Below, one piece after another: positions 1-62,477 of a stretch of 64,000 nucleotides of DNA. Source of the stretch: Escherichia phage Ec_Makalu_001; sequence record MN894885.1; one strand, written 5' to 3'. The notes under the pieces are model-generated. The model worked only from the letters and a program-made list of their open reading frames with translations. It was not told the DNA's origin and did no database searches. The translations under genes and the position numbers were made by a program. Positions within the stretch are counted from its first letter, which is position 1; every line of letters starts with the position of its first letter.

Positions 1-27
1 ATTAAGGCAAATACAGGATTCATAAAC

Positions 28-1269
28 ATGACTCATATTTTTACTGAACTGTTGCGGGAATCTACTTCCTCAGTAGCTAACCAGACAGCGCGACCGCAAC
101 TATTATCATTAACTCGCGCGGTAAACAACCTGATTTTCTCTGATCTGGTAGCAATCCAGCCAACGGATCAACCAGTATCTGCATTGTACGGCCTACGTTA
201 TCTTAATCGTGATGGACAGATGACTTTCCGAACTGCTGCAACCTACGGTGGTGCGGTTGGTGGTCGCACAGAGATTGAAGAGTTTTCAAAAGAAAAATCT
301 TATGACGAAGGCGCACTATTCAAATCAGGCGATGTTGTATACGAAGTTGTGACCGCTGGTACAGTCGGTGAAGATGCCGCAACTCCAGAAGCTGCGATCT
401 TTAAAGGCGTAATGACAAACAAAATTCGTTTCTATAGCGATTGTGCATCGGTAGAATACTTTGAAGATAAAAACACCGAAATTGCGTCTACCTCTATGCA
501 GTTTGACAAGTGGCAAGTTAATGTAGGTTCTCGTAAACTGAAAACCTCGTTCACCACTGAATTAATGCAGGATCTTGAGGCAAGCCAAATCAACTCTGAA
601 AACTCTGTAATTGATCTTCTGGCTACTGTTGCTTCCGAAGAGATCAACAAAGATATTATTCAGAAGTTGATCACTGTATCATCTCGCTATAAAATTAAAG
701 GGATCACCCCTGATGGCGTACTTTCTCTCGTTAGCGTTCAGGATGCACCAACACAAGCGCGTGAACTTTACCGCTATGCTTGCGAGATGAGCAATCAAAT
801 GTTGCGGACTTCCTCCTTTGCTGGTACATACGTTTTGGCGTCTTCTCGCGTGGTTGGCCTCCTGCAATCTTCCGGTTGGATGGAAGAAACCGACAATGCT
901 CTAAGCGAAGGTCGTCTACGTTGCGGTCTGGAAGTTTACGCAGACACGACAACACCTTTCGATTATATGCTCGTTGGTTGCAAGCACATGATCGGTGATA
1001 TGGAGAGTGTCGGTTCTCTGTTCTACTCCCCATATACAGAAGCCGACGGCGCTGGCGCGTATAAGAGCGTAATTGACCCTAATAGCTTCCAGCATCATGT
1101 AGCTATTATGAATCGTTATTCACTCTCTGTCAACCCATACACATCAAAAGTTGATCAGGAAGAACACCAGGTCATCAAGGGTGACGATTGGGGTAAAATG
1201 GCTGGACGTTCAGAAATGTCCTACATTTTAGGAATCGAACTGCCACCACTTGAGATTGACAACGCTTAA
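28..1269 (+). CDS. 24: Capsid vertex protein gp24
   Basis: 413 aa ORF; N-terminal region and overall length closely resemble remembered T4 gp24 (e.g. LLRESTxxxxN, LTRAxxxLIxSDxVAxQxTxQPVxAxYGxxYLN); position upstream of hoc/uvsW matches T4 synteny. Confidence 0.88.
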   Translation: MTHIFTELLRESTSSVANQTARPQLLSLTRAVNNLIFSDLVAIQPTDQPVSALYGLRYLNRDGQMTFRTAATYGGAVGGRTEIEEFSKEKSYDEGALFKSGDVVYEVVTAGTVGEDAATPEAAIFKGVMTNKIRFYSDCASVEYFEDKNTEIASTSMQFDKWQVNVGSRKLKTSFTTELMQDLEASQINSENSVIDLLATVASEEINKDIIQKLITVSSRYKIKGITPDGVLSLVSVQDAPTQARELYRYACEMSNQMLRTSSFAGTYVLASSRVVGLLQSSGWMEETDNALSEGRLRCGLEVYADTTTPFDYMLVGCKHMIGDMESVGSLFYSPYTEADGAGAYKSVIDPNSFQHHVAIMNRYSLSVNPYTSKVDQEEHQVIKGDDWGKMAGRSEMSYILGIELPPLEIDNA

Positions 1270-1857
1270 CTAAATATCTAACCAAGACAAGTCAGATCCG
1301 CCCAAGATTTTTTCGACGGCGGATCTATTTTCTTGATGATATAAGTTAAAACATGGTATCCCATGTCTACGGGCAACATAAACAGCAATTCGAGTTCCTC
1401 CCGAAACGATTCCATTAACTTCTTTAGCCCAGAATATCACACAATCTACAGGATCATCAAGTGTCTCACCTAAGACTTGAGCAACATTTCTAGAAAACAG
1501 ATTTTGCATGTATAACGGTATAGAACGAGGATTATCATAAACGTGTTCTAATTCATCCATCGCCAGATTTTTTTGTTCTAAGGTTTGCCATGCAATCACA
1601 TCATGACCGTTATGCTTGTGATCATAAAACTTCCAATTTGGAATGAAAATTTTTCTATAATCTGGATCGTAATACTTCATGAAAGCATTGTCCATACCGT
1701 AAGCCCCTCCAGAATGCGCTACAACGCGATTTTCTGACAATACCCTCCCAATGGTACTAGCCATTATCAAAATGTCGCTAGGCGCTTTTCTAGAGCCTAT
1801 TAAAGCACATCTACGAAGTGGTTTTACTCCAAATAGATCTTGTAACTGGTCAAACAT
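1270..1857 (-). CDS. DprA/Smf-like Rossmann-fold (SLOG superfamily) protein, function unknown
   Basis: 195 aa ORF with GGAGG RBS upstream; motif IGSRKA...VVAHSGGAYGMD resembles the DprA/Smf Rossmann domain signature; occupies the position where T4 carries rnlB but lacks a ligase KxDG motif. Confidence 0.45.
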   Translation of the reverse strand: MFDQLQDLFGVKPLRRCALIGSRKAPSDILIMASTIGRVLSENRVVAHSGGAYGMDNAFMKYYDPDYRKIFIPNWKFYDHKHNGHDVIAWQTLEQKNLAMDELEHVYDNPRSIPLYMQNLFSRNVAQVLGETLDDPVDCVIFWAKEVNGIVSGGTRIAVYVARRHGIPCFNLYHQENRSAVEKILGGSDLSWLDI

Positions 1858-2010
1858 AATATTTCCTCCATAGAAAGCAATATCATACTACAAGTTAATA
1901 ACAAATACAAGTATCCGCGTAGCGGAAGCGAGCACAGCGAGCAATAAAACACTTCCAATAATTGATTAATAAATGTTCGAAACAAATTTTTATTATTCTA
2001 TAAGATAAGT

Positions 2011-2180
2011 CTTCGTTTTGATCATAATTTAATCATACATGTAAAAACGACACAAAAGGATATCGCTTCGCGAACTCCTACGGAGTATAACATTTGTGTT
2101 ACATTATGTGGTGATTAATAATTAATCAAAGATACATTTTCTATGTTCTAAAGATCTTTCTTCGTTTTGATCATAATTTA
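2011..2180. repeat. 21-bp direct repeat pair (cttcgttttgatcataattta at 2011-2031 and 2160-2180) in long AT-rich intergenic region
   Basis: Exact 21-nt match read directly in the sequence, copies ~150 bp apart, inside the 410-bp non-coding gap 1858-2270. Confidence 0.6.
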
Positions 2181-2237
2181 GTCAAACAGTATTAATATTG
2201 TCCATATGTAAACTAAAATTATGTCAGTAATAGATAC

Positions 2238-2261
2238 AAAAAAGCCGCCCCGAAGGACGGC
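2238..2261 (-). terminator. Rho-independent terminator (minus strand)
   Basis: GC-rich hairpin gccgccc-cgaa-gggcggc on the minus strand followed by U-run (A-run 2238-2243 on plus), immediately downstream of the 2271..2708 gene. Confidence 0.6.
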
Positions 2262-2270
2262 TAATGTTAA

Positions 2271-2708
2271 TTATTTGTTGATAACGATCTGATTTCGGCG
2301 AATGGTAACATTACTCTTAGAGATGATCAGATCATCCGGCACTACGTTAGTTTTGTATGGTTGGAAGCGAACAAGCATCTGATTGCGTTTAGACCCTTCC
2401 TTAATCTTGATTTCCATCTGGATATTGTTGCCTACGTGAGCAACCGCAATTTCACCTTTATTCTCATAGACCCACTTGCTGGTAACGTCTCCCGCAAAAG
2501 CCTTAATAACTTGCAATGCTTCGTCGTATGCGGTAGAGCTGTGAACTTTCAGAAGGCCAGCCGTAGCAAGACGGGAGCAGGTGATCGCCGGAGATTGCCA
2601 AACATCAACATTAATTTGCTCAATCAGAGTAACACCGCCCTGATCAACTGCTTTGAATGCTTCGAACATTGCCTTTTTCATTGCTACGTGGTTTTTACGG
2701 AATTTCAT
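2271..2708 (-). CDS. Hypothetical protein (145 aa)
   Basis: ORF with RBS (GAGGTG) upstream and terminator downstream; no recognisable motif. Confidence 0.5.
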   Translation of the reverse strand: MKFRKNHVAMKKAMFEAFKAVDQGGVTLIEQINVDVWQSPAITCSRLATAGLLKVHSSTAYDEALQVIKAFAGDVTSKWVYENKGEIAVAHVGNNIQMEIKIKEGSKRNQMLVRFQPYKTNVVPDDLIISKSNVTIRRNQIVINK

Positions 2709-2754: not shown

Positions 2755-3030
2755 TCAGGACATTGCCCGTTTGAATGCGTCCATTATAACAGTGTTATTT
2801 GGCTTGTCAACACGTTTTTGAACTTTATTTTTAAATTTTTTGTTTATGTGGTGTTTACGATAAACAACCTTTTCACGGCTGGCGTAAGCCTCGCGTGCAT
2901 CTTTTACCATCAACCATGCCTTAGCCGCATCTTGTCCGCTGATCCCGCCAATCTTCTTAGCAATATCAACAAAATTAAGACCGTGATCTTCGCGTAGCAT
3001 GTAAACCATTAACGCTGTTTTCTTGTCCAT
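2755..3030 (-). CDS. Hypothetical small basic protein, possible DNA-binding
   Basis: 91 aa ORF, lysine/arginine-rich C-terminus; start overlaps stop of upstream ORF 3030..3227 (coupled). Confidence 0.4.
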   Translation of the reverse strand: MDKKTALMVYMLREDHGLNFVDIAKKIGGISGQDAAKAWLMVKDAREAYASREKVVYRKHHINKKFKNKVQKRVDKPNNTVIMDAFKRAMS

Positions 3031-3227: not shown

Positions 3228-3391
3228 ACTTCACCTCATACATTCATAAACACAACAACGAATAGGACAGTAACAGTTATTAAAGCCATTTTCAACCCCA
3301 TATTCATAATATTTTCTTCGCCTCACGATGACAGTAGCATGTCGATGCGTGCCATTATAGGCATCTAAATCGCTCTGTCAAGCACAAAAAC

Positions 3392-3416
3392 AAAAAAGCC
3401 ACCCCGAAGGATGGCT
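3392..3416 (-). terminator. Rho-independent terminator (minus strand)
   Basis: Hairpin agccatcc-ttcg-gggtggct on minus strand followed by U-run; downstream of hoc stop. Confidence 0.6.
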
Positions 3417-26728: not shown

Positions 26729-27205
26729 TTATTTTTCTTGATGCTCGCGCTCGTACTTTTCGAAATAAAATTCTACTGGCTGGTCATGAATTGACAGCAA
26801 GCCAAAGCGTTTAGCCGCTCGCAATCCCATATTGCGCTGAATGTACTTCTGGAAGTTCTCGCGTATACACTTACGCCAGTATTCTAAGCCCATACAGCTT
26901 TTATAAAGATTGCATTGCACACACGCCGGATTCATGTTATCAAGTATATCATGCTCCGGTTTATGCATTCCTACAACCTTATACTTCCACGATCCATCAT
27001 CGTTACGGGCAATGCGACCATTTTCATCATAGACTACTTTTGAGCGTCGTAATACTGGTTTGATGTGGTCTGCGTGCCAGCGATCCCCTAGTTCCTCACC
27101 ACAATAGGCACAACGTCCACCGTATTTCATTTTCAGGATCTGGCGTTGCTCTTTCTTTGACAATTTTTTAGGTTTAGGGGCTTTCGCCCCTTCATTATCA
27201 CACAT
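26729..27205 (-). CDS. HNH endonuclease
   Basis: 158 aa; CAYCGEEL...HADHIKP...N...CVQCN fits the HNH zinc-finger nuclease signature; start overlaps the stop of the DNA ligase gene. Confidence 0.6.
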   Translation of the reverse strand: MCDNEGAKAPKPKKLSKKEQRQILKMKYGGRCAYCGEELGDRWHADHIKPVLRRSKVVYDENGRIARNDDGSWKYKVVGMHKPEHDILDNMNPACVQCNLYKSCMGLEYWRKCIRENFQKYIQRNMGLRAAKRFGLLSIHDQPVEFYFEKYEREHQEK

Positions 27206-28700
27206 CGAATACCTCTTTTACTGTATTTGCAGTGGTCTTGTCGTAGCGAATACGTTTGATGATTGGGAGAAATAAAGAGAACTCCGGTTCATCTTCTTTA
27301 CGTGATTTGCTGCGAATGTACCCGTTGCATGTCATCTCAATGACTTTTCCAATCAGGTTATGACGGTCAGCCCATAACATTTCTCGGTCGAGTTCATTTC
27401 GACGATCGAACGGAATTACACGTTCAATACCATCATCATCTTTTTCGGTTGTGGTGTCGGTCAATCCCGATCCGGTGTTAGTCGTCATTCGTCCGCACGC
27501 ACTACGGACAGTAAAACCGCCTACCTTGTTAGGATCTTTACTATGCGGATATACATCAACAATTTCCGCGTCGAAGTCAATCACTTCTTTAAATTTAACC
27601 TGATCTTTACTGCGACGATCTTCAAATACACCATGTAAATTTTTAAGGATAATACCTTCCAATCCCATGTTTACATAGCGATGATATACTTCGCGAGCTT
27701 CATCGATATTGTTAACTACAGTGTTTTCGATTATCTGAACACGAGGATCGTTAAGTTCTTCAACAATCTGTTTTAGTTCTTCGAATCGATCTTTATATTG
27801 CTTCGTTGCTTTCTCGTTTCCGTAATACACATCACGGTCGATAACATCCCAGACAGTGTAAACAATACATTGGGCTTCTTCTTTTGGAATAGTTCCTTTC
27901 AGTGATTTGTTGAGGATACCATTTCCGGTCTGACGGTCTGCAACAACGGATTCTTTCACTGCTTCCGCTACTGGCGTTAATGGCATTTCCTCTTCTTCAA
28001 ATATCCATGATAGAGTACCATCATAAACGCTCTCAACGAAGTTCTGCGCTGGTGTTTGAGAAAGGGTAGGCATATATACCAACTCACCATCTAAAACAAT
28101 TCCACGGCCTCGTAGACGCTCTAAAACAGCAAACAAATCATCCAGCCCCTGATAGGTATTACCTGAACGGGTATAGATTGCTAATGTTTCTCCGTCAATA
28201 TCAGCCATACCACGAGCGCCATCGCTTTTAAGTTGTGCATACGCCGGATATTTGATATTGGCAATAGTCTTATCAGAACATGACGATGCAAGGTGGCAAG
28301 GTTGCTGAGGAATCAGCTTCTTCCATACCTTGTTTGCGGTGGTAGCGGAACAACCGCATTCCAGATCACGATTCAGGACCATCATTGCAACTTTAGCATC
28401 ATCTTCTGACAAGCAAGTCAGAGTATCGGTAACTAGCTGTAATGCAGCATTACCAGTTACTTGACGCGTGGCAAGTTTATTTTTAAAGACCTGTAATGCA
28501 CCGGATAAAGACAATACAGACGAATAGCGAGACGGTTTATCGTATTTCTTTACGCCAAACGTAACCTGCTTGCAATATGCCAGATAAAAGCATTCTTTCA
28601 GCGTTTCATTGCTTGCAGATTCTTTCAGGATCTTTTCTTTCAGCGATGTTTTGTCAGTGGCTGCAAGCTGATTAATGATATTAAGAATTGACATTTTCAC
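27198..28700 (-). CDS. 30: ATP-dependent DNA ligase gp30
   Basis: 500 aa; adenylation motif KSDGARG (KxDG), IILKN, DAEIVDVYPHSKDPNKVGGF; close to remembered T4 ligase. Confidence 0.88.
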   Translation of the reverse strand: MKMSILNIINQLAATDKTSLKEKILKESASNETLKECFYLAYCKQVTFGVKKYDKPSRYSSVLSLSGALQVFKNKLATRQVTGNAALQLVTDTLTCLSEDDAKVAMMVLNRDLECGCSATTANKVWKKLIPQQPCHLASSCSDKTIANIKYPAYAQLKSDGARGMADIDGETLAIYTRSGNTYQGLDDLFAVLERLRGRGIVLDGELVYMPTLSQTPAQNFVESVYDGTLSWIFEEEEMPLTPVAEAVKESVVADRQTGNGILNKSLKGTIPKEEAQCIVYTVWDVIDRDVYYGNEKATKQYKDRFEELKQIVEELNDPRVQIIENTVVNNIDEAREVYHRYVNMGLEGIILKNLHGVFEDRRSKDQVKFKEVIDFDAEIVDVYPHSKDPNKVGGFTVRSACGRMTTNTGSGLTDTTTEKDDDGIERVIPFDRRNELDREMLWADRHNLIGKVIEMTCNGYIRSKSRKEDEPEFSLFLPIIKRIRYDKTTANTVKEVFDV

Positions 28701-29160
28701 CTCGTTTTGTTAAACGTTCACGAATATCGTTTAGGATACTACAAAATTCCGATTCGGTCAATATGGTCTTTAACGGATCAGTTCCACCTATGCTATGACG
28801 CAATTTCTTATTTCCGGTAGCGAGCAATGCTTTACAAAAATCTGGGTTATTTCGTGCCATCGTAACAAATGCCAGATGTACCAGTCTGTAATAATGCTCA
28901 CTCATTCGATGAATCGGGCGACCCTGAAAATATAGCATGTGATTCTCTATCTTTTCAGTCCTTCCGGTTCTTTTTGCTTTGCAGCCGTGCATCAAAAAGA
29001 TTTCTCTTTGTCTCTGAGGGTTCTTAAATCTTAGCCCCTGTAAAAATCCTTCTGTGCTGTTAATATCGCAACCAAATAGACGGAATGGCCTTTTATTGAA
29101 ATTACTCAACTCGCCAGATGGATAAGGTCCACCCGCATAGATATCAATTTCAGAAGTCAT
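28681..29160 (-). CDS. Hypothetical protein (30.x position)
   Basis: 159 aa ORF coupled to the ligase start; no recognised motif. Confidence 0.45.
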   Translation of the reverse strand: MTSEIDIYAGGPYPSGELSNFNKRPFRLFGCDINSTEGFLQGLRFKNPQRQREIFLMHGCKAKRTGRTEKIENHMLYFQGRPIHRMSEHYYRLVHLAFVTMARNNPDFCKALLATGNKKLRHSIGGTDPLKTILTESEFCSILNDIRERLTKRGENVNS

Positions 29161-37629: not shown

Positions 37630-39873
37630 TTACAGTTTGCAAGATGAACATTCGCTAGCGTCTTCCGTACCATCAGCACCATCACGCACGTTAGCGTAAT
37701 ACAGTGTCTTGAGGCCGTAATATTGAGCAAACAGCATATCATCTAACACATCAGCAATATCGACTTTACCAGTCTTATAAGTGCTTGGATCGTAGGATGT
37801 ATTGGAACTAATCGCCTGATCTACAAACTTCTGCATGATCGCTGCCAGTGTCAGATAAGGTTTGTTACCTTTCTTGATCAGTGTCCAAAGCAGGTCAATA
37901 ACATCAGCATTATTCTCTACGTTCGGAATAACCTGATTAAATTGTCCTTCCTTTGATCCTTTAACCGATACAATCCCGCGAGGCGGTTCTATTCCATTGG
38001 TGCTATTAGATACCTGAGAAGACGACTCACAAGGCATCAGCGCCGATAGTGTACTGTTACGAATGCCATATTTTTTCAGGTCTTCGCGCAGTTCTTCCCA
38101 ATCCATCTCATACACCGGGTCAACCAGTTCATCTACTGTCTTTTTGTACCAGTCAATAGGAAGTTCACCGCGACCATAACGTGTTTCGTGCATCAGTTCG
38201 CAAGCGCCCTTCTCTTTTGCTAGCTGCACACTAGCTTTAATCAGAGCATATTGCAAGCGTTCAAACGTTTTATGCGTAAACTCGTTAGCGTCTTCATATG
38301 TGAAGAAATTATCCGCCAGATATGATGCAAAGTTAGTCACACCAACACCCAGAGAGCGACGTTTCTTAGCTGTCAGTGCTTGTTTTACAGGATAATCCTG
38401 ATAATCTAACAGGTTATCAAGTGCACGCACCATAACCATAGCGATCCGCTCTACTTCTTCCATGTTTTCGATATCGAAATTACCTAAAACATATGCTGCC
38501 AAAGTGCATAGGCTGATCTCTGAATCATCACGACCCATCGGTTTTGTCGGCAGAGCGATTTCACAACACAGGTTAGATTGTTTAATCGGTGCTACATTAC
38601 GAATAAACGCCCCGTGATTGTTCATGTTGTCTGTGAACGCTGGATAGATTCGACCAGTGTTAAAACGTTCAATTGCCACCGCTAAAAACAGGTCTTCGGC
38701 TTTAACACGAGTTTTACGAACACTCGGATCTTTTTCCAGTTTTTCATAAAGCTGGCGGAATCCTTCCTCATCTCGGAAGTACAGATCCCACAACAAGCCA
38801 CCCGCAACATCTGGACTAAACAGAGTAATGTAATCACGTTTAAGGAATCGCTCTACCATCAGGTTATTAATCTGTACGCCGTAATCAAGATGACGAATGC
38901 GGTTATCTTCTACCCCTTTGTTGTTCTTCAACACAATAAGACTTTCAAACTCTAAATGCCACATTGGGTAATAGAGAGTCGCCGCCCCGCCACGAATACC
39001 GCCTTGTGAGCATGACTTAACGGCAGTCTGAAAATGTTTCCAGAATGGGATAACGCCAGTATGACGAACTTCACCATGCCCGATCTTAGATCCTTCCGCT
39101 CGAATCATACCAGCATTGATACCGATACCAGCACGCTTACTAATATACTTGATGATTGCATTTGCTGTTTCGTTGATGCCCTGCAATGAGTCATCACTTT
39201 CAATCACCACACACGAACTAAATTGTCGTGTTGGAGTACGCACACCAGCCATAATCGGAGTAGGCAGAGAAATTTGCTTATTCGCAACAGCATTATAAAA
39301 ATCAATCACATGTTCAAGTCGATTTTCTGTCTCTTCTTGATGTAAGCACATACCGATCAGCATATAAGCAAATTGCGGTGTTTCAATGATTTTCTTAGTG
39401 CTGCGATCCTGAACAAGATATTTCTCTTTTAACTGCATTGCACCAGCATAGGTCATTTTAAAGTCAAGTTTATGGTCGATGAATTTCTCCAGATATTCCA
39501 CTTCTTCACGGGAATACTTTTGCAGAATTTCGCGATCATATTTTCCGGTTGCAATATTACGCTCAATATGGCTGTAAAAATCAATTGGTTGGAATTGACC
39601 GTATACTGATTTACGAAGCGCGAACATTGCAAGGTTACTTGCTACATATTGATAATCAGGTGTTTCTACAGTAATGTTATCTGCGGCGACCTTAATCAAT
39701 ACTTTCTGGATATCGTTAGTAGACATACCTTCTGTCAGAAGTGGTTCAACCATATCAAACAATTCATATGGATCAACGTTATGACCTTCGGCTGCCGCTT
39801 CCAGAATTTTCATTACTTTTTCTCTTTCAAACGGAACAGTCAGACCGGAAGACTTAACAACATTTTTAATCAT
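37630..39873 (-). CDS. nrdA: Ribonucleotide reductase large subunit
   Basis: 747 aa; class Ia RNR active-site region (NLCCEIALP; C-terminal CESSS...CSSCKL redox Cys pairs). Confidence 0.88.
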   Translation of the reverse strand: MIKNVVKSSGLTVPFEREKVMKILEAAAEGHNVDPYELFDMVEPLLTEGMSTNDIQKVLIKVAADNITVETPDYQYVASNLAMFALRKSVYGQFQPIDFYSHIERNIATGKYDREILQKYSREEVEYLEKFIDHKLDFKMTYAGAMQLKEKYLVQDRSTKKIIETPQFAYMLIGMCLHQEETENRLEHVIDFYNAVANKQISLPTPIMAGVRTPTRQFSSCVVIESDDSLQGINETANAIIKYISKRAGIGINAGMIRAEGSKIGHGEVRHTGVIPFWKHFQTAVKSCSQGGIRGGAATLYYPMWHLEFESLIVLKNNKGVEDNRIRHLDYGVQINNLMVERFLKRDYITLFSPDVAGGLLWDLYFRDEEGFRQLYEKLEKDPSVRKTRVKAEDLFLAVAIERFNTGRIYPAFTDNMNNHGAFIRNVAPIKQSNLCCEIALPTKPMGRDDSEISLCTLAAYVLGNFDIENMEEVERIAMVMVRALDNLLDYQDYPVKQALTAKKRRSLGVGVTNFASYLADNFFTYEDANEFTHKTFERLQYALIKASVQLAKEKGACELMHETRYGRGELPIDWYKKTVDELVDPVYEMDWEELREDLKKYGIRNSTLSALMPCESSSQVSNSTNGIEPPRGIVSVKGSKEGQFNQVIPNVENNADVIDLLWTLIKKGNKPYLTLAAIMQKFVDQAISSNTSYDPSTYKTGKVDIADVLDDMLFAQYYGLKTLYYANVRDGADGTEDASECSSCKL

Positions 39874-39884
39874 ATTACCTCACT

Positions 39885-40187
39885 TCATATATCAAGCGTA
39901 TTTTCTGGAGTATCGCCGAAAACTCTATTAACGAGATCCGCCAATACTTCACCGTGGCATTTCTTAGGGTAGCAAGTACAACCTAAGCGCATATGTCTTA
40001 ATACTTCTAAATGCGCCCGTGTTATCTCACCATTTCGAATCTTATTATACAACCACTCTTTGTATAATGCAATAGCTTTCTCTCGTCCGTATTCTTTGGC
40101 GGTGTATGGATTTCCCCACATAGTACCACGCTGAATATTAACATCAAAATCGCTATTGTATTTGTTTACAACGCGGCATATTTTCAT
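39885..40187 (-). CDS. DUF4326-like small protein
   Basis: 100 aa; GNPY...LGCTCYPKKCHG pattern; GC palindrome and AAGGAG RBS upstream. Confidence 0.4.
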   Translation of the reverse strand: MKICRVVNKYNSDFDVNIQRGTMWGNPYTAKEYGREKAIALYKEWLYNKIRNGEITRAHLEVLRHMRLGCTCYPKKCHGEVLADLVNRVFGDTPENTLDI

Positions 40188-40223: not shown

Positions 40224-41456
40224 TTATACTGCCATTTGAGCGGTGATTGCCGGATGGCTTTGATAGTTGTGAATTTTAAAGTCTTTCGGAGTTTTTGTCA
40301 ATACCTCATCTAAAGATTTAAATTCCGGCAACTCAATTGTTGGTTTATCAAACGGAACACGGCTTAACTGTTCCATCACTTGGTCAAAGTGATTTTTGTA
40401 AATGTGAGTATCTCCGCCGGAGAAAATCAGTTCTCCTACTTCGAGATCACACATTTTCGCTATGATGTGAGTTAACAGCGCATAGCTGGCGACGTTAAAG
40501 GGCAAGCCCAAAAAGCTGTCTACGCTTCGCTGAAACCACATACAAGACAGTTTACCCTCATTGACATAGAATTGCACGAACGGATGACATACACCTAATA
40601 CAGCATTATGTGTTCCTTGTACGTTCCATGAGTCAATGATGATACGTCGATCCGTTGGATTGTTTTTAATTTGTTCAATCACGTTTTGTAACTGGTCTTC
40701 CCAAATCTTCGGGCGATAGACATATTCTTCATCGTCTTTAGTGCTCGATGTGTCTATGTCCATACTAGCAAAGATCGTGGTATCTGGCGCTAAAATATCC
40801 CCGCCTAGATAATCACTATCAAGCAGATAACCGAAATAACCATCATCTACCCATTCCTGGAATCCCCACAAGCAATATGCATCATTAACAAAATTAGATT
40901 GAGTCTTCCAGTGGTCTGCTACTAAGAATTGATTATATTCAGAATCAAACTCTTCATAACGCATACCACGCCAGATAGCACATAAACGGTCTTCTGTGTC
41001 GTTGGTTGGCGTAAAGTCTTCTACCCACGGGTGTTTAAATGTATGTGTATATTTGCTCTTAACGCGCTTAATTTTGATTTCACCGTGTGGATGAATCGGT
41101 TTGCGTCGCCACGCCATACCATACATATTGCCGACATTATAACCATTGAATCGCAAGGGATTCTTTTCTTTCATATCAAGACAGTTGCCGCGCCAAATAT
41201 CAAATGCTTCCTCGTCAAACTTTCCGCGTGTAATTTCCTGTAAGCGACGGCGGTCAAGTGATCCCTCCATAAACCATAGCAATTCGCCAATTACAGAGGC
41301 TGTAGCCATCTTTTTAGTGGTCAGTAATGGGAAACCCTTGCTTAAATCAATTCGCATCTCTGTGCCGAATTTAGAGAGCGTACCTACCCCCGTTCGGTCT
41401 TCACGAGGCCAGCCATTATCAAGAACATCACGCAATAGTTTCAAATATTCTTTCAT
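40224..41456 (-). CDS. td: Thymidylate synthase with ~115-aa internal insertion
   Basis: 410 aa; TS motifs DRTGVGT, catalytic LGVCHPFVQFYV, QRSVDSFLGLPFNVASYALL (Asn = dUMP specificity), C-terminal AV; ~115 extra residues between the YGxxWR segment and the DRRIIxxSWN segment relative to E. coli and T4 TS. Confidence 0.8.
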   Translation of the reverse strand: MKEYLKLLRDVLDNGWPREDRTGVGTLSKFGTEMRIDLSKGFPLLTTKKMATASVIGELLWFMEGSLDRRRLQEITRGKFDEEAFDIWRGNCLDMKEKNPLRFNGYNVGNMYGMAWRRKPIHPHGEIKIKRVKSKYTHTFKHPWVEDFTPTNDTEDRLCAIWRGMRYEEFDSEYNQFLVADHWKTQSNFVNDAYCLWGFQEWVDDGYFGYLLDSDYLGGDILAPDTTIFASMDIDTSSTKDDEEYVYRPKIWEDQLQNVIEQIKNNPTDRRIIIDSWNVQGTHNAVLGVCHPFVQFYVNEGKLSCMWFQRSVDSFLGLPFNVASYALLTHIIAKMCDLEVGELIFSGGDTHIYKNHFDQVMEQLSRVPFDKPTIELPEFKSLDEVLTKTPKDFKIHNYQSHPAITAQMAV

Positions 41457-53385: not shown

Positions 53386-53546
53386 CATTTTTTACAAGCC
53401 GATCCATGTGGTCGGCTTTATTTTTATACAGTTGGTTAAAATGTAACCAAAACGAAGAAAGATCTTTAGAATAATAGAAAATTTGTTTCGGTTAAAAATT
53501 AGTCAGTGCCTACGGCACGTCGCGAAGCGATATTTTGTTAACATTC

Positions 53547-53554
53547 TATAAATA
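53547..53554 (+). promoter_or_regulatory. T4-type late promoter motif TATAAATA upstream of gene 36
   Basis: Exact TATAAATA 34 bp upstream of the ATG. Confidence 0.4.
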
Positions 53555-53587
53555 CTCGGAACTATAACTAATTTTTGAGGTTACTTT

Positions 53588-62234: not shown

Positions 62235-62477
62235 TTAGAAATTTTTCGCTTCTTCTTCGGTCATCATAACCGAGCATTCGTGCATAACTTTGAAAACCGG
62301 GTCAATCATGTCGAATGCTTCGCGGGACAGTTTACGAGAAGCGATTTTGATTGCTTCTACGTCTTCTACTACAGGAACAAAAACAGTTTTCAGTTCATCG
62401 AGCACAGCAGCTTCTTTTTCATTCAGGAAGATCCCAGCGTCGTACAGTGCAACTTCGATAACATTAACTTTAACCAT
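62235..62477 (-). CDS. Hypothetical protein (about 80 aa)
   Basis: Track ORF trimmed to the ATG at 62477, which follows the GGAGG RBS and cassette. Confidence 0.4.
   Translation of the reverse strand: MVKVNVIEVALYDAGIFLNEKEAAVLDELKTVFVPVVEDVEAIKIASRKLSREAFDMIDPVFKVMHECSVMMTEEEAKNF

Follow-up and report, generated by a model that had tools for sequence, protein, structure and literature searches.

Introduction

The RF domain of the DprA/Smf proteins, a Rossmann-like fold with structures available from H. pylori (4LJK/4LJR) and R. palustris (3MAJ), binds single-stranded DNA (ssDNA). Here, we describe a locus of Escherichia phage Ec_Makalu_001, a Krischvirus (RB49/Phi1 group), where a 195-residue protein related to this domain, ORF164, is encoded next to a long non-coding gap that holds tandem palindromic cassettes. 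The DNA analysed (referred to as the window) comprises 64,000 nucleotides of record MN894885.1. Unlike the DprA/Smf proteins, ORF164 consists of a single domain without SAM or DML1/winged-helix extensions, scores below the Pfam and TIGRFAM thresholds and can be aligned by sequence in its N-terminal half only.

Stand-alone phage SLOG proteins have been surveyed by Iyer, Burroughs, Anantharaman and Aravind (PMC9503650, PMC7824862). The sections of these surveys consulted here describe an enrichment in larger phages as well as fusions to NADAR and DUF4326 similar to those of the ORF164 family, and predict processing or sensing of ADP-ribose derivatives; a linkage to rnlB or the Krischvirus locus is not described in these sections. 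The likeness of ORF164 to the ShosA/PsyrA antitoxins is confined to common motifs, as ORF164 has no adjacent toxin gene, no SAM domain and no C-terminal helix.

The genomic setting corresponds to the gene 24-rnlB-24.2-24.3-hoc region of T4. Flanking genes 24, 24.3, hoc, inh and uvsW are common to both phages, but T4 contains rnlB and no DprA-like gene, whereas the Krischvirus contains a DprA-like gene, an ORFan and the cassette region, and no rnlB.

The closest described counterparts of the cassettes are the promoter-early stem-loops (PeSLs) of RB49/phi1 (PMC2839356). These are likewise repeated intergenic units of promoter-like and stem-loop sequence, found in the same phages, and both kinds have mosaic junctions at their borders. 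In contrast to the true PeSL promoters of the window (2810-2783 and 3381-3354), which score 12/12, no cassette copy in the window is at or near the consensus hexamers. The cassette stem-loop is a long AT-rich palindrome, while that of the PeSL is a G/C-tract hairpin. Furthermore, the cassettes exist in four copies only, are also found beside late genes and are common to a temperate E. coli phage, unlike PeSLs. No mention of the gap element was found in the PeSL paper (PMC2839356), and an assignment of the gap cassettes as PeSLs was rejected given they have no consensus sigma-70 promoter.

Results

ORF164 is a stand-alone DprA-type SLOG domain

ORF164 matches PHROG 768 ("DprA-like DNA recombination-mediator protein") with an E-value of 1.2e-60, residues 15-187 aligning with profile positions 4-181 of 191, and its Phi1 orthologue is already named 'DprA-like' in RefSeq. 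A search of the PDB with a profile built from 44 family members recovered three DprA structures at E-values from 1e-5 to 0.02, followed by a LOG enzyme at 0.07. Fold matches in BFVD are much closer to DprA-like entries than to the YspA/DUF2493 viral SLOGs. The structure model displays one alpha/beta domain over 195 residues, and neither the model nor a Pfam scan reveals SAM, DML1/winged-helix or any further Pfam domain.

The protein combines the SLOG-type Rossmannoid fold and glycine-rich nucleotide-binding loop that define the SLOG superfamily with the Rossmann-like RF fold of DprA and the GSR/SGGAxGxD/RN motifs of the DprA ssDNA-binding surface. The catalytic motif of LOG phosphoribohydrolases is PGGxGTxxE; the glutamate is absent from ORF164, where the equivalent stretch reads SGGTRIAV. 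Residues that are invariant across the 44 family members, among them G21/R23, G50/A52/G54/D56 and R123(N124), make up the GSR, SGGAxGxD, RNxxQ and GGT motifs; the stretches IGSRKA (residues 20-25) and VVAHSGGAYGMD (residues 45-56) cover the first two. The N-terminal motifs align with those of H. pylori DprA, with R23 paired to the arginine of the GTR motif, which we take to be R52, assuming the crystal construct begins at residue 5. A published paper lists R52 of H. pylori DprA among the ssDNA contacts.

ORF164 thus has the fold and motifs of DprA, and has neither the curated scores nor the domain architecture. Taken together, the data show it to be a stand-alone DprA-type SLOG domain, a single-domain member of a large phage 'DprA-like' SLOG branch.

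The family is widespread and adjoins rnlB in relatives

The family profile yielded 4,319 matches (E <=1e-3) among 1.84 billion representative sequences, mostly 160-200 residues in length. With tblastn, 1,434 of the 50,697 phage records searched were found to encode an ORF164 homolog, among them Slopekvirus, Pseudotevenvirus, Moonvirus, Cinqassovirus (Aeh1), Acinetobacter Lazarusvirus and Pseudomonas Nankokuvirus, as well as jumbo phages and further large coliphages.

In T4 the gene order is 24, rnlB, 24.2, 24.3, hoc, with rnlB directly beside 24 and no DprA-like gene. Moonvirus CF1 and Klebsiella phage Mexia (the record of which gives no genus) display the order hoc ... rnlB, DprA-like, then convergent gp24. 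The rnlB/DprA-like pair remains adjacent at another location in Pseudotevenvirus IME-CF2 and Slopekvirus KP1; in KP1 the two genes overlap, and NAMPT is found three genes further downstream. No rnlB or RNA ligase 2 was found by tblastn in ~162 kb of the Krischvirus genome, and the rnlB/24.2 slot is taken by the gap and the ORFan ORF165. As the DprA-like gene adjoins rnlB in relatives and the Krischvirus lacks rnlB, it is a downstream neighbour of rnlB and not its substitute.

An earlier note on this locus had proposed a DprA-like protein rather than RNA ligase 2, and the PHROG 768 assignment, SLOG fold and DprA structure matches bear this out. Its placement of the gene where T4 has rnlB holds in that T4 rnlB lies beside gene 24, but not for the rnlB slot itself, which is filled by the gap and ORF165. 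The view that a DprA/SLOG-like protein is uncommon in T4-like phages is refuted by the 1,434 records, which cover many T4-like genera. ORF164 belongs to a known, widespread phage family, for which the fusions described below and the rnlB linkage are new contextual leads.

The relocated block in KP1 and IME-CF2 (loci L085 and L007) comprises an srd-like 'decoy of sigma70' gene, rnlB, the DprA-like gene, a gene for a PHROG 7671 protein, two small open reading frames (ORFs) and NAMPT, which suggests a possible NAD/RNA-repair/counter-defence gene island. The Aeh1 gene upstream of the DprA-like gene was tested as a divergent Rnl2 and rejected.

Family fusions indicate candidate partners

Ten long family members were scanned for additional domains. 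NADAR was found in five, DUF4326 in one (P0137) and the ssDNA exonuclease RecJ in one, with nothing else detected in the remaining three. Two of the five NADAR fusions are giant proteins with additional SLOG domains. The window encodes a gp30.3/AdfN-type NADAR protein and a stand-alone DUF4326 protein (Table 1), and these can be considered candidate partners of ORF164 because its family is fused to both domains elsewhere. T4 gp30.3 (AdfN) strips ADP-ribose from phage DNA, countering DarTG1 (PMC11825919), while DUF4326 has been predicted to connect NAD/ADP-ribose chemistry and DNA modification. The NADAR gene, encoding a homolog of this T4 anti-DarTG1 factor, adjoins the DNA ligase gene (27198-28700). 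The DUF4326 gene is flanked by ORFs of 747 residues (37630-39873, minus strand) and 410 residues (40224-41456, minus strand).

The gap contains tandem palindromic cassettes

The gap (1858-2270) is 413 bp long with a GC content of 30.3%, compared to 40.3% for the whole window. Among the intergenic regions annotated over the ~102 kb of Ec_Makalu_002 inspected, none is as long, and the runners-up measure ~320-330 bp. Exact copies of the 21-mer CTTCGTTTTGATCATAATTTA are found at 2011-2031 and 2160-2180, with 0.01 chance matches expected and no further sites in the window even when 3 mismatches are allowed. The 21-mer lies at the core of a longer direct repeat of 77 nt (71% identity, 149 bp spacing) and of a ~150-bp cassette that is present twice in tandem; in each cassette, small GC hairpins come after an AT-rich imperfect palindrome of ~86 nt. 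Read on the minus strand, the gap contains the terminator T1, a 50-nt spacer, element A, a hairpin cluster, element B, a GC-rich block, a candidate promoter, the Shine-Dalgarno sequence and the ATG of ORF164.

T1 has the features of an intrinsic terminator, with an 8-bp stem containing 6 GC pairs, a T6 run and a folding z of -4.5. The long hairpin is degenerate in copy A. Mini-hairpins with the GCGAAGC motif recur after the distant copies C and D and in L090, one of two metagenomic relatives of the locus (L090 and L092). L090 also retains the GC-rich block, the hairpin of which is a clearer terminator there. No Rfam family came near its gathering score between 1200 and 3500 (best 23.9 vs 95 bits), and none was found in three prophage loci that carry the element.

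On the gene-sense strand, the apex of the palindrome presents a -10-like hexamer: TAGAAT in copies B, C, D and the prophage, with TAGAAC as the variant of copy A, and TATAAT in both L090 and L092. At the -35 position, A, B and most copies of L090/L092 have ATGATC, and C and D have GTAACC. L092 copy 1 has TTGAAC there, and the resulting promoter is near consensus (TTGAAC-17-TATAAT). GC hairpins with T-rich tails are located 40-70 nt downstream. The last L090 hairpin is a clear terminator with a tail that overlaps the -35 of the ORF164 promoter. A candidate promoter on the opposite (plus) strand, TTGATC/TTGGTT-16..18-TAnnnA, was rejected as the main model, since four of the five compared copies lack its -7 T and its occurrence does not exceed chance, although it faces real genes in copy D and the prophage.

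The cassettes are constrained and conserved

A comparison of four Krischvirus genomes shows two variable sites in the 172 nt of elements A and B (two in A, none in B). The spacer at 2199-2242 is variable at 6 of 44 sites, and third codon positions at 13 of 196 in ORF164 and 14 of 146 in ORF165. A 20-pair hairpin specified by hand pairs in 85.7% of cells over 15 copies, compared to 29-56% with slid partners, for copies that represent ~5 independent lineages and a structure drawn from one of them. Two of its pairs have changed on both sides.

L090 and L092, with homologs 57% and 50% identical to ORF164, respectively, provide stronger evidence. Both relatives share the order hoc, 24.3, ORF165-like, gap (404 and 326 bp), DprA-like and convergent gp24. 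In both gaps, AT-rich hairpins again form a tandem pair, with GC mini-hairpins after each of them. L090 retains the outer stem TGATTAA/TTAATCA, while the inner stem AAACGAA/TTTGTTT is replaced by AAACGTCAT/ATGACGTTT; the L092 stem is different again. Compared to shuffled sequences, these hairpins have z values of -3.0, -4.5 and -5.0, with only -1.4 for L092 copy 2. The persistence of length, tandem layout and hairpins, the latter with compensatory changes, at 50-57% protein identity shows the gap is an old, maintained and selected non-coding region, not a decayed rnlB.

With respect to the gap, the earlier note is confirmed on the long AT-rich stretch (given as 410 bp), the exact 21-bp direct repeat and the terminator, and the comparison with relatives it called for found gap, tandem arrangement and hairpins retained in L090/L092. 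It had seen the 21-bp core alone, whereas the full unit is a ~150-bp palindrome-containing cassette with distant copies. Of its suggestion of a regulatory element or small RNA, the conserved non-coding elements stand, and a small RNA or regulatory role would be possible. The cassettes of the gap make up a small family of palindromic elements under constraint that had not been annotated before.

Further copies occur in the phage genome and in an E. coli prophage

A covariance model (CM) detects exactly four copies (A-D) in the phage genome, each oriented like its downstream gene, and none in other T4-like loci. Copy C lies between the gp35-like and gp36-like tail-fibre genes and is followed by GTGCCtacGGCAC, TCGCgaaGCGA and a late promoter TATAAATA (53547-53554). 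The complete intergenic stretch (53386-53587) contains, in order, a terminator, copy C, two GC mini-hairpins and this T4-type late promoter.

Copy D is located upstream of gene 3. It also lies just upstream of, and in reverse orientation to, Makalu002_129 (L004 12473-12727, plus strand), with TTGGTT-17-TATATT facing that gene. Makalu002_129 encodes an 84-residue protein (PHROG 17832; coiled-coil by eye) opposite to genes 2 and 3. In another Krischvirus-like contig (L045), a homing endonuclease gene of 177 residues (2148-2681, minus strand) that has a TTGACA promoter of its own is inserted between copy D, which it directly follows, and gene 3; its translation looks HNH/AP2-like by eye.

An IMG/VR scan combined with a hidden Markov model search revealed full-length copies (E 1e-9 to 1e-12) in ~25 prophage contigs. 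These contigs represent a prophage of the E. coli chromosome that was found in 57 of 5,426 complete genomes and in which the element opens a 1.27-kb ORF-free region with similar GC mini-hairpins and GTGTAGGTTT iterons. This region (L041 7753-8998, the same as L084 8982-10254 of E. coli CP024134) belongs to a prophage integrated beside hicAB/yncJ. Its many GC mini-hairpins have GAA/GTA/TTC loops and are accompanied by repeated AATCCCTTTC motifs, the GTGTAGGTTT iterons being clustered; it looks like an origin or packaging region. The element is absent from the plasmids searched, a search of one genome per species with a 20-base pattern found no further copies, and among GenBank phages it is confined to Krischviruses.

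Layout of the locus

The first 4 kb of the window are 99.8% identical to Escherichia phage Ec_Makalu_002, and 58 GenBank phages match this stretch with at least 90% identity. The gene order is gp24, ORF164, the gap, ORF165, 24.3 (DUF2774), hoc, inh and uvsW (Table 1). ORF165 is restricted to the 58 Krischvirus records, with 56-58% identical homologs in L090 and L092. Textbook PeSL cassettes border the ORFans ORF165 and ORF167. The second of these provides another perfect sigma-70 consensus promoter, TTGACA-16-TATAAT, within 3354-3416 (minus strand), preceded by a terminator 92.6% identical to T1 over 27 nt. A tRNA scan found no tRNA genes in the window. The GenBank record of vB_EcoM_Skers annotates a 'putative RNA ligase' inside the matched 4-kb stretch, which may be a positional mislabel of ORF164.

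Table 1 Features of the ORF164 locus, with candidate partner genes and distant copies of the palindromic element (window coordinates unless stated otherwise).
Feature	Position	Strand	Remarks
gp24 head vertex protein	28-1269	+	convergent with ORF164; annotated orthologues in Makalu_002 and Phi1
ORF164, 195-residue stand-alone DprA-type SLOG domain protein	1270-1857	-	
Shine-Dalgarno GGAGG of ORF164	1865-1869	-	from sequence; ribosome-binding site in Makalu_002 annotation
Candidate sigma-70 promoter of ORF164, TTGTAT-17-TATGAT	1882-1910	-	aligned position in L090 reads TTGATT-17-TATAGT
GC-rich block TTGCTCGCTGTGCTCGCTTCCGCTACGCGGA with mini-hairpin TCCGCtacGCGGA and T-rich tail (weak terminator T3)	1914-1944	-	terminator-like match 1926-1914
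Palindromic element copy B	1958-2043	-	contains 21-bp repeat 2011-2031; CM R1 71.1 bits; folds as long hairpin
Hairpin cluster CTCCgtaGGAG, TCGCgaaGCGA, then CGTTTTT	2044-2106	-	folding z = -1.7
Palindromic element copy A	2107-2192	-	contains 21-bp repeat 2160-2180; palindrome TGATTAATaATTAATCA; CM R1 77.2 bits
Intrinsic terminator T1, end of ORF165 unit	2243-2262	-	terminator in Makalu_002 annotation; conserved in L090
ORF165, 145-residue ORFan	2271-2708	-	PHROG 15652
PeSL-type consensus sigma-70 promoter of ORF165, TTGACA-16-TATAAT with TG	2783-2810	-	
gp30.3/AdfN-type NADAR protein	28681-29160	-	Pfam Phage_30_3 5.3e-39; candidate ORF164 partner
Stand-alone 100-residue DUF4326 protein	39885-40187	-	Pfam DUF4326 6.5e-23; candidate ORF164 partner
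Palindromic element copy C, between gp35-like and gp36-like tail-fibre genes	53425-53510	+	CM R1 90.7 bits
Palindromic element copy D, upstream of gene 3	Makalu_002 62341-62425		

Discussion

ORF164 most likely binds ssDNA or a nucleotide. We favour ssDNA or a DNA-linked nucleotide as the probable ligand because DprA is the nearest relative, RecJ occurs as a fusion partner and NADAR acts on DNA, with a soluble nucleotide as a strong rival. The protein retains the GSR, SGGAxGxD, RNxxQ and GGT pocket motifs without the LOG hydrolase glutamate or the DprA accessory domains, and could bind ssDNA or a DNA-borne nucleotide moiety without any catalysis, presumably in phage DNA metabolism or counter-defence. 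It would plausibly cooperate with the phage NADAR (gp30.3/AdfN-like) and DUF4326 proteins. A role as extra ssDNA-binding protein is also how phage SLOG/DprA proteins are read in one survey (PMC7824862).

A number of observations weigh against this model. PF02481 scores 22.3 bits on ORF164 against a cutoff of 29.6, over residues 15-60 only, and TIGR00732 scores 14.4 against a threshold of 191, in the N-terminal half only. Most family members are stand-alone, the NADAR gene is adjacent in none of eight phage contexts inspected, and the literature yielded no binding or activity data for any phage family member. The other survey, made in silico, predicts for viral SLOG domains an action on ADP-ribose derivatives and not on DNA (PMC9503650). 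ORF164 could accordingly sense, sequester or cleave a soluble NAD+/ADP-ribose-derived nucleotide, such as a cyclic ADP-ribose (cADPR) isomer, and dull host immune signalling without binding DNA. We regard this as possible, if doubtful: by sequence and fold the closest relatives are the ssDNA-binding domains of DprA, the glutamate of PGGxGTxxE is missing, one family fusion is to an ssDNA exonuclease, and NADAR is known to act on ADP-ribosylated DNA bases. A functional partnership with RNA ligase 2 in RNA repair would explain why rnlB lies directly upstream, at times overlapping, in all four contexts inspected for it (Moonvirus, Mexia, Pseudotevenvirus and Slopekvirus), and why the pair has been relocated jointly in the latter two. 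However, Krischviruses, L090 and L092 retain ORF164 without rnlB, T4 presents the reverse case, and the DprA-like gene has different neighbours in Aeh1, Acinetobacter and Pseudomonas phages. Since each gene is found without the other, such a partnership is unlikely as an obligatory function, and we consider it improbable overall. More improbable still is an orphan antitoxin mimic that replaces the unstable ShosA/PsyrA and so neutralises ShosTA/PsyrTA abortive infection. Partial PADLOC hits are the sole support for this proposal, and they are confined to the shared motif region (residues 15-60). By sequence, DprA is recovered from the PDB and ShosA is not, and ORF164 lacks the SAM and C-terminal parts that ShosA requires for dimer formation. 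Pairing with a PRTase-type toxin gene is not observed, the neighbours of ORF164 being gp24 and the non-coding gap.

The locus is best explained as a conserved module of Krischvirus-type phages in which T1 is followed by two tandem palindromic cassettes, a weak putative sigma-70 promoter and ORF164. In this view, the cassettes might punctuate transcription and insulate ORF164 from the upstream ORFan unit. Each cassette may fire one short transcript and, PeSL-like, could serve as portable homology for coliphage recombination. Mosaic junctions at element borders in prophages, together with the homing endonuclease gene inserted after copy D, suggest the cassettes also mark recombination boundaries, as PeSLs do. 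A ssDNA/DNA-nucleotide binding ORF164 combined with cassettes that punctuate transcription is our best joint explanation, held tentatively.

The data on the cassettes are not uniformly in favour of punctuation. The window copies have a poor -35, promoter-like counts are not above those of shuffled sequences, and transcription would start downstream of the most conserved part of the cassette. Folding of the window copies does not surpass that of shuffled sequences (z +0.1 to -1.9), and RNAalifold returns two small local hairpins only, without the long hairpin. Indications for the strand are mixed: the G.U count (38 vs 4) favours the gene-sense strand, from which the structure was derived, while folding energies favour the opposite strand for copies A and B. 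No Krischvirus transcript data were found in the literature.

Alternatively, the cassettes could be small-RNA genes, with a promoter inside the palindrome and a transcript of ~60-100 nt made up of the 3' arm and GC hairpins. The -10-like hexamer keeps its position across all lineages (four of the five copy types in the window and the prophage read TAGAAT), L092 contains a near-consensus promoter, and GC hairpins with T-rich tails lie downstream of the palindromes. We nevertheless find this unlikely in view of the weak -35 in most copies, the poor terminators after copies C, D and the prophage copy, the lack of an Rfam match, and the location of the most conserved part (5' arm and loop) outside the predicted transcript. 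The palindromes might instead act as DNA, either as origin/unwinding elements or as recombination hotspots, where cruciforms targeted by endonuclease VII would seed recombination-dependent replication. The L090/L092 palindromes are near-perfect with an AT-rich centre, and both strands fold equally well; there are only three element loci per genome; the prophage copy opens an ORF-free region with GTGTAGGTTT iterons and GCGAAGC-type mini-hairpins; and mosaic junctions occur at element borders. The palindromy and the prophage context fit a DNA-level role equally well, but there is no link to a replication protein, the prophage iterons are ~400 bp from the element, and copy A is conserved despite much lost pairing, making this somewhat less probable than small-RNA genes. 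Sites of RNA processing or stability (RNase III-type hairpins) in read-through polycistronic transcripts would be in keeping with the ~20 bp stem with internal loops, the intercistronic positions between co-directional genes and the occurrence in unrelated coliphages, as expected of a signal read by a host enzyme. The strong conservation of the loop sequence is unnecessary for RNase III, and the elements lie downstream of strong terminators, hence we consider such sites quite unlikely. We are equally sceptical of a broader proposal, in which the cassettes would form a new non-coding element class exchanged between virulent T4-like and temperate E. coli phages (cruciform/R-loop replication-recombination initiators or small-RNA genes), and the DprA-like protein would be the ssDNA-targeting partner of NADAR (AdfN) and DUF4326 in reversing DarT-type DNA ADP-ribosylation. 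Finally, the gap does occupy the slot that holds rnlB in relatives, yet a mere decayed rnlB remnant is extremely unlikely: tblastn with two Rnl2 proteins gave no match in the gap at E up to 10, its length and architecture are conserved at ~55% protein identity, and the cores are constrained.

If the cassettes are ordinary promoter/terminator punctuation, the locus represents routine T4-like genome plasticity. PHROG 768 is present in ~3% of sequenced phages, and no experimental function for any phage member was found in the literature searched. The rnlB linkage, the NADAR/DUF4326/RecJ fusions and the same-genome partners provide concrete hypotheses (ssDNA binding, anti-DarT activity and ADP-ribose signalling) that are testable in an easy E. 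coli phage. Furthermore, a well-studied phage group still hides constrained non-coding elements overlooked by annotation pipelines, and the presence of this element in a prophage as well suggests that lytic and temperate coliphages exchange regulatory or replication modules.

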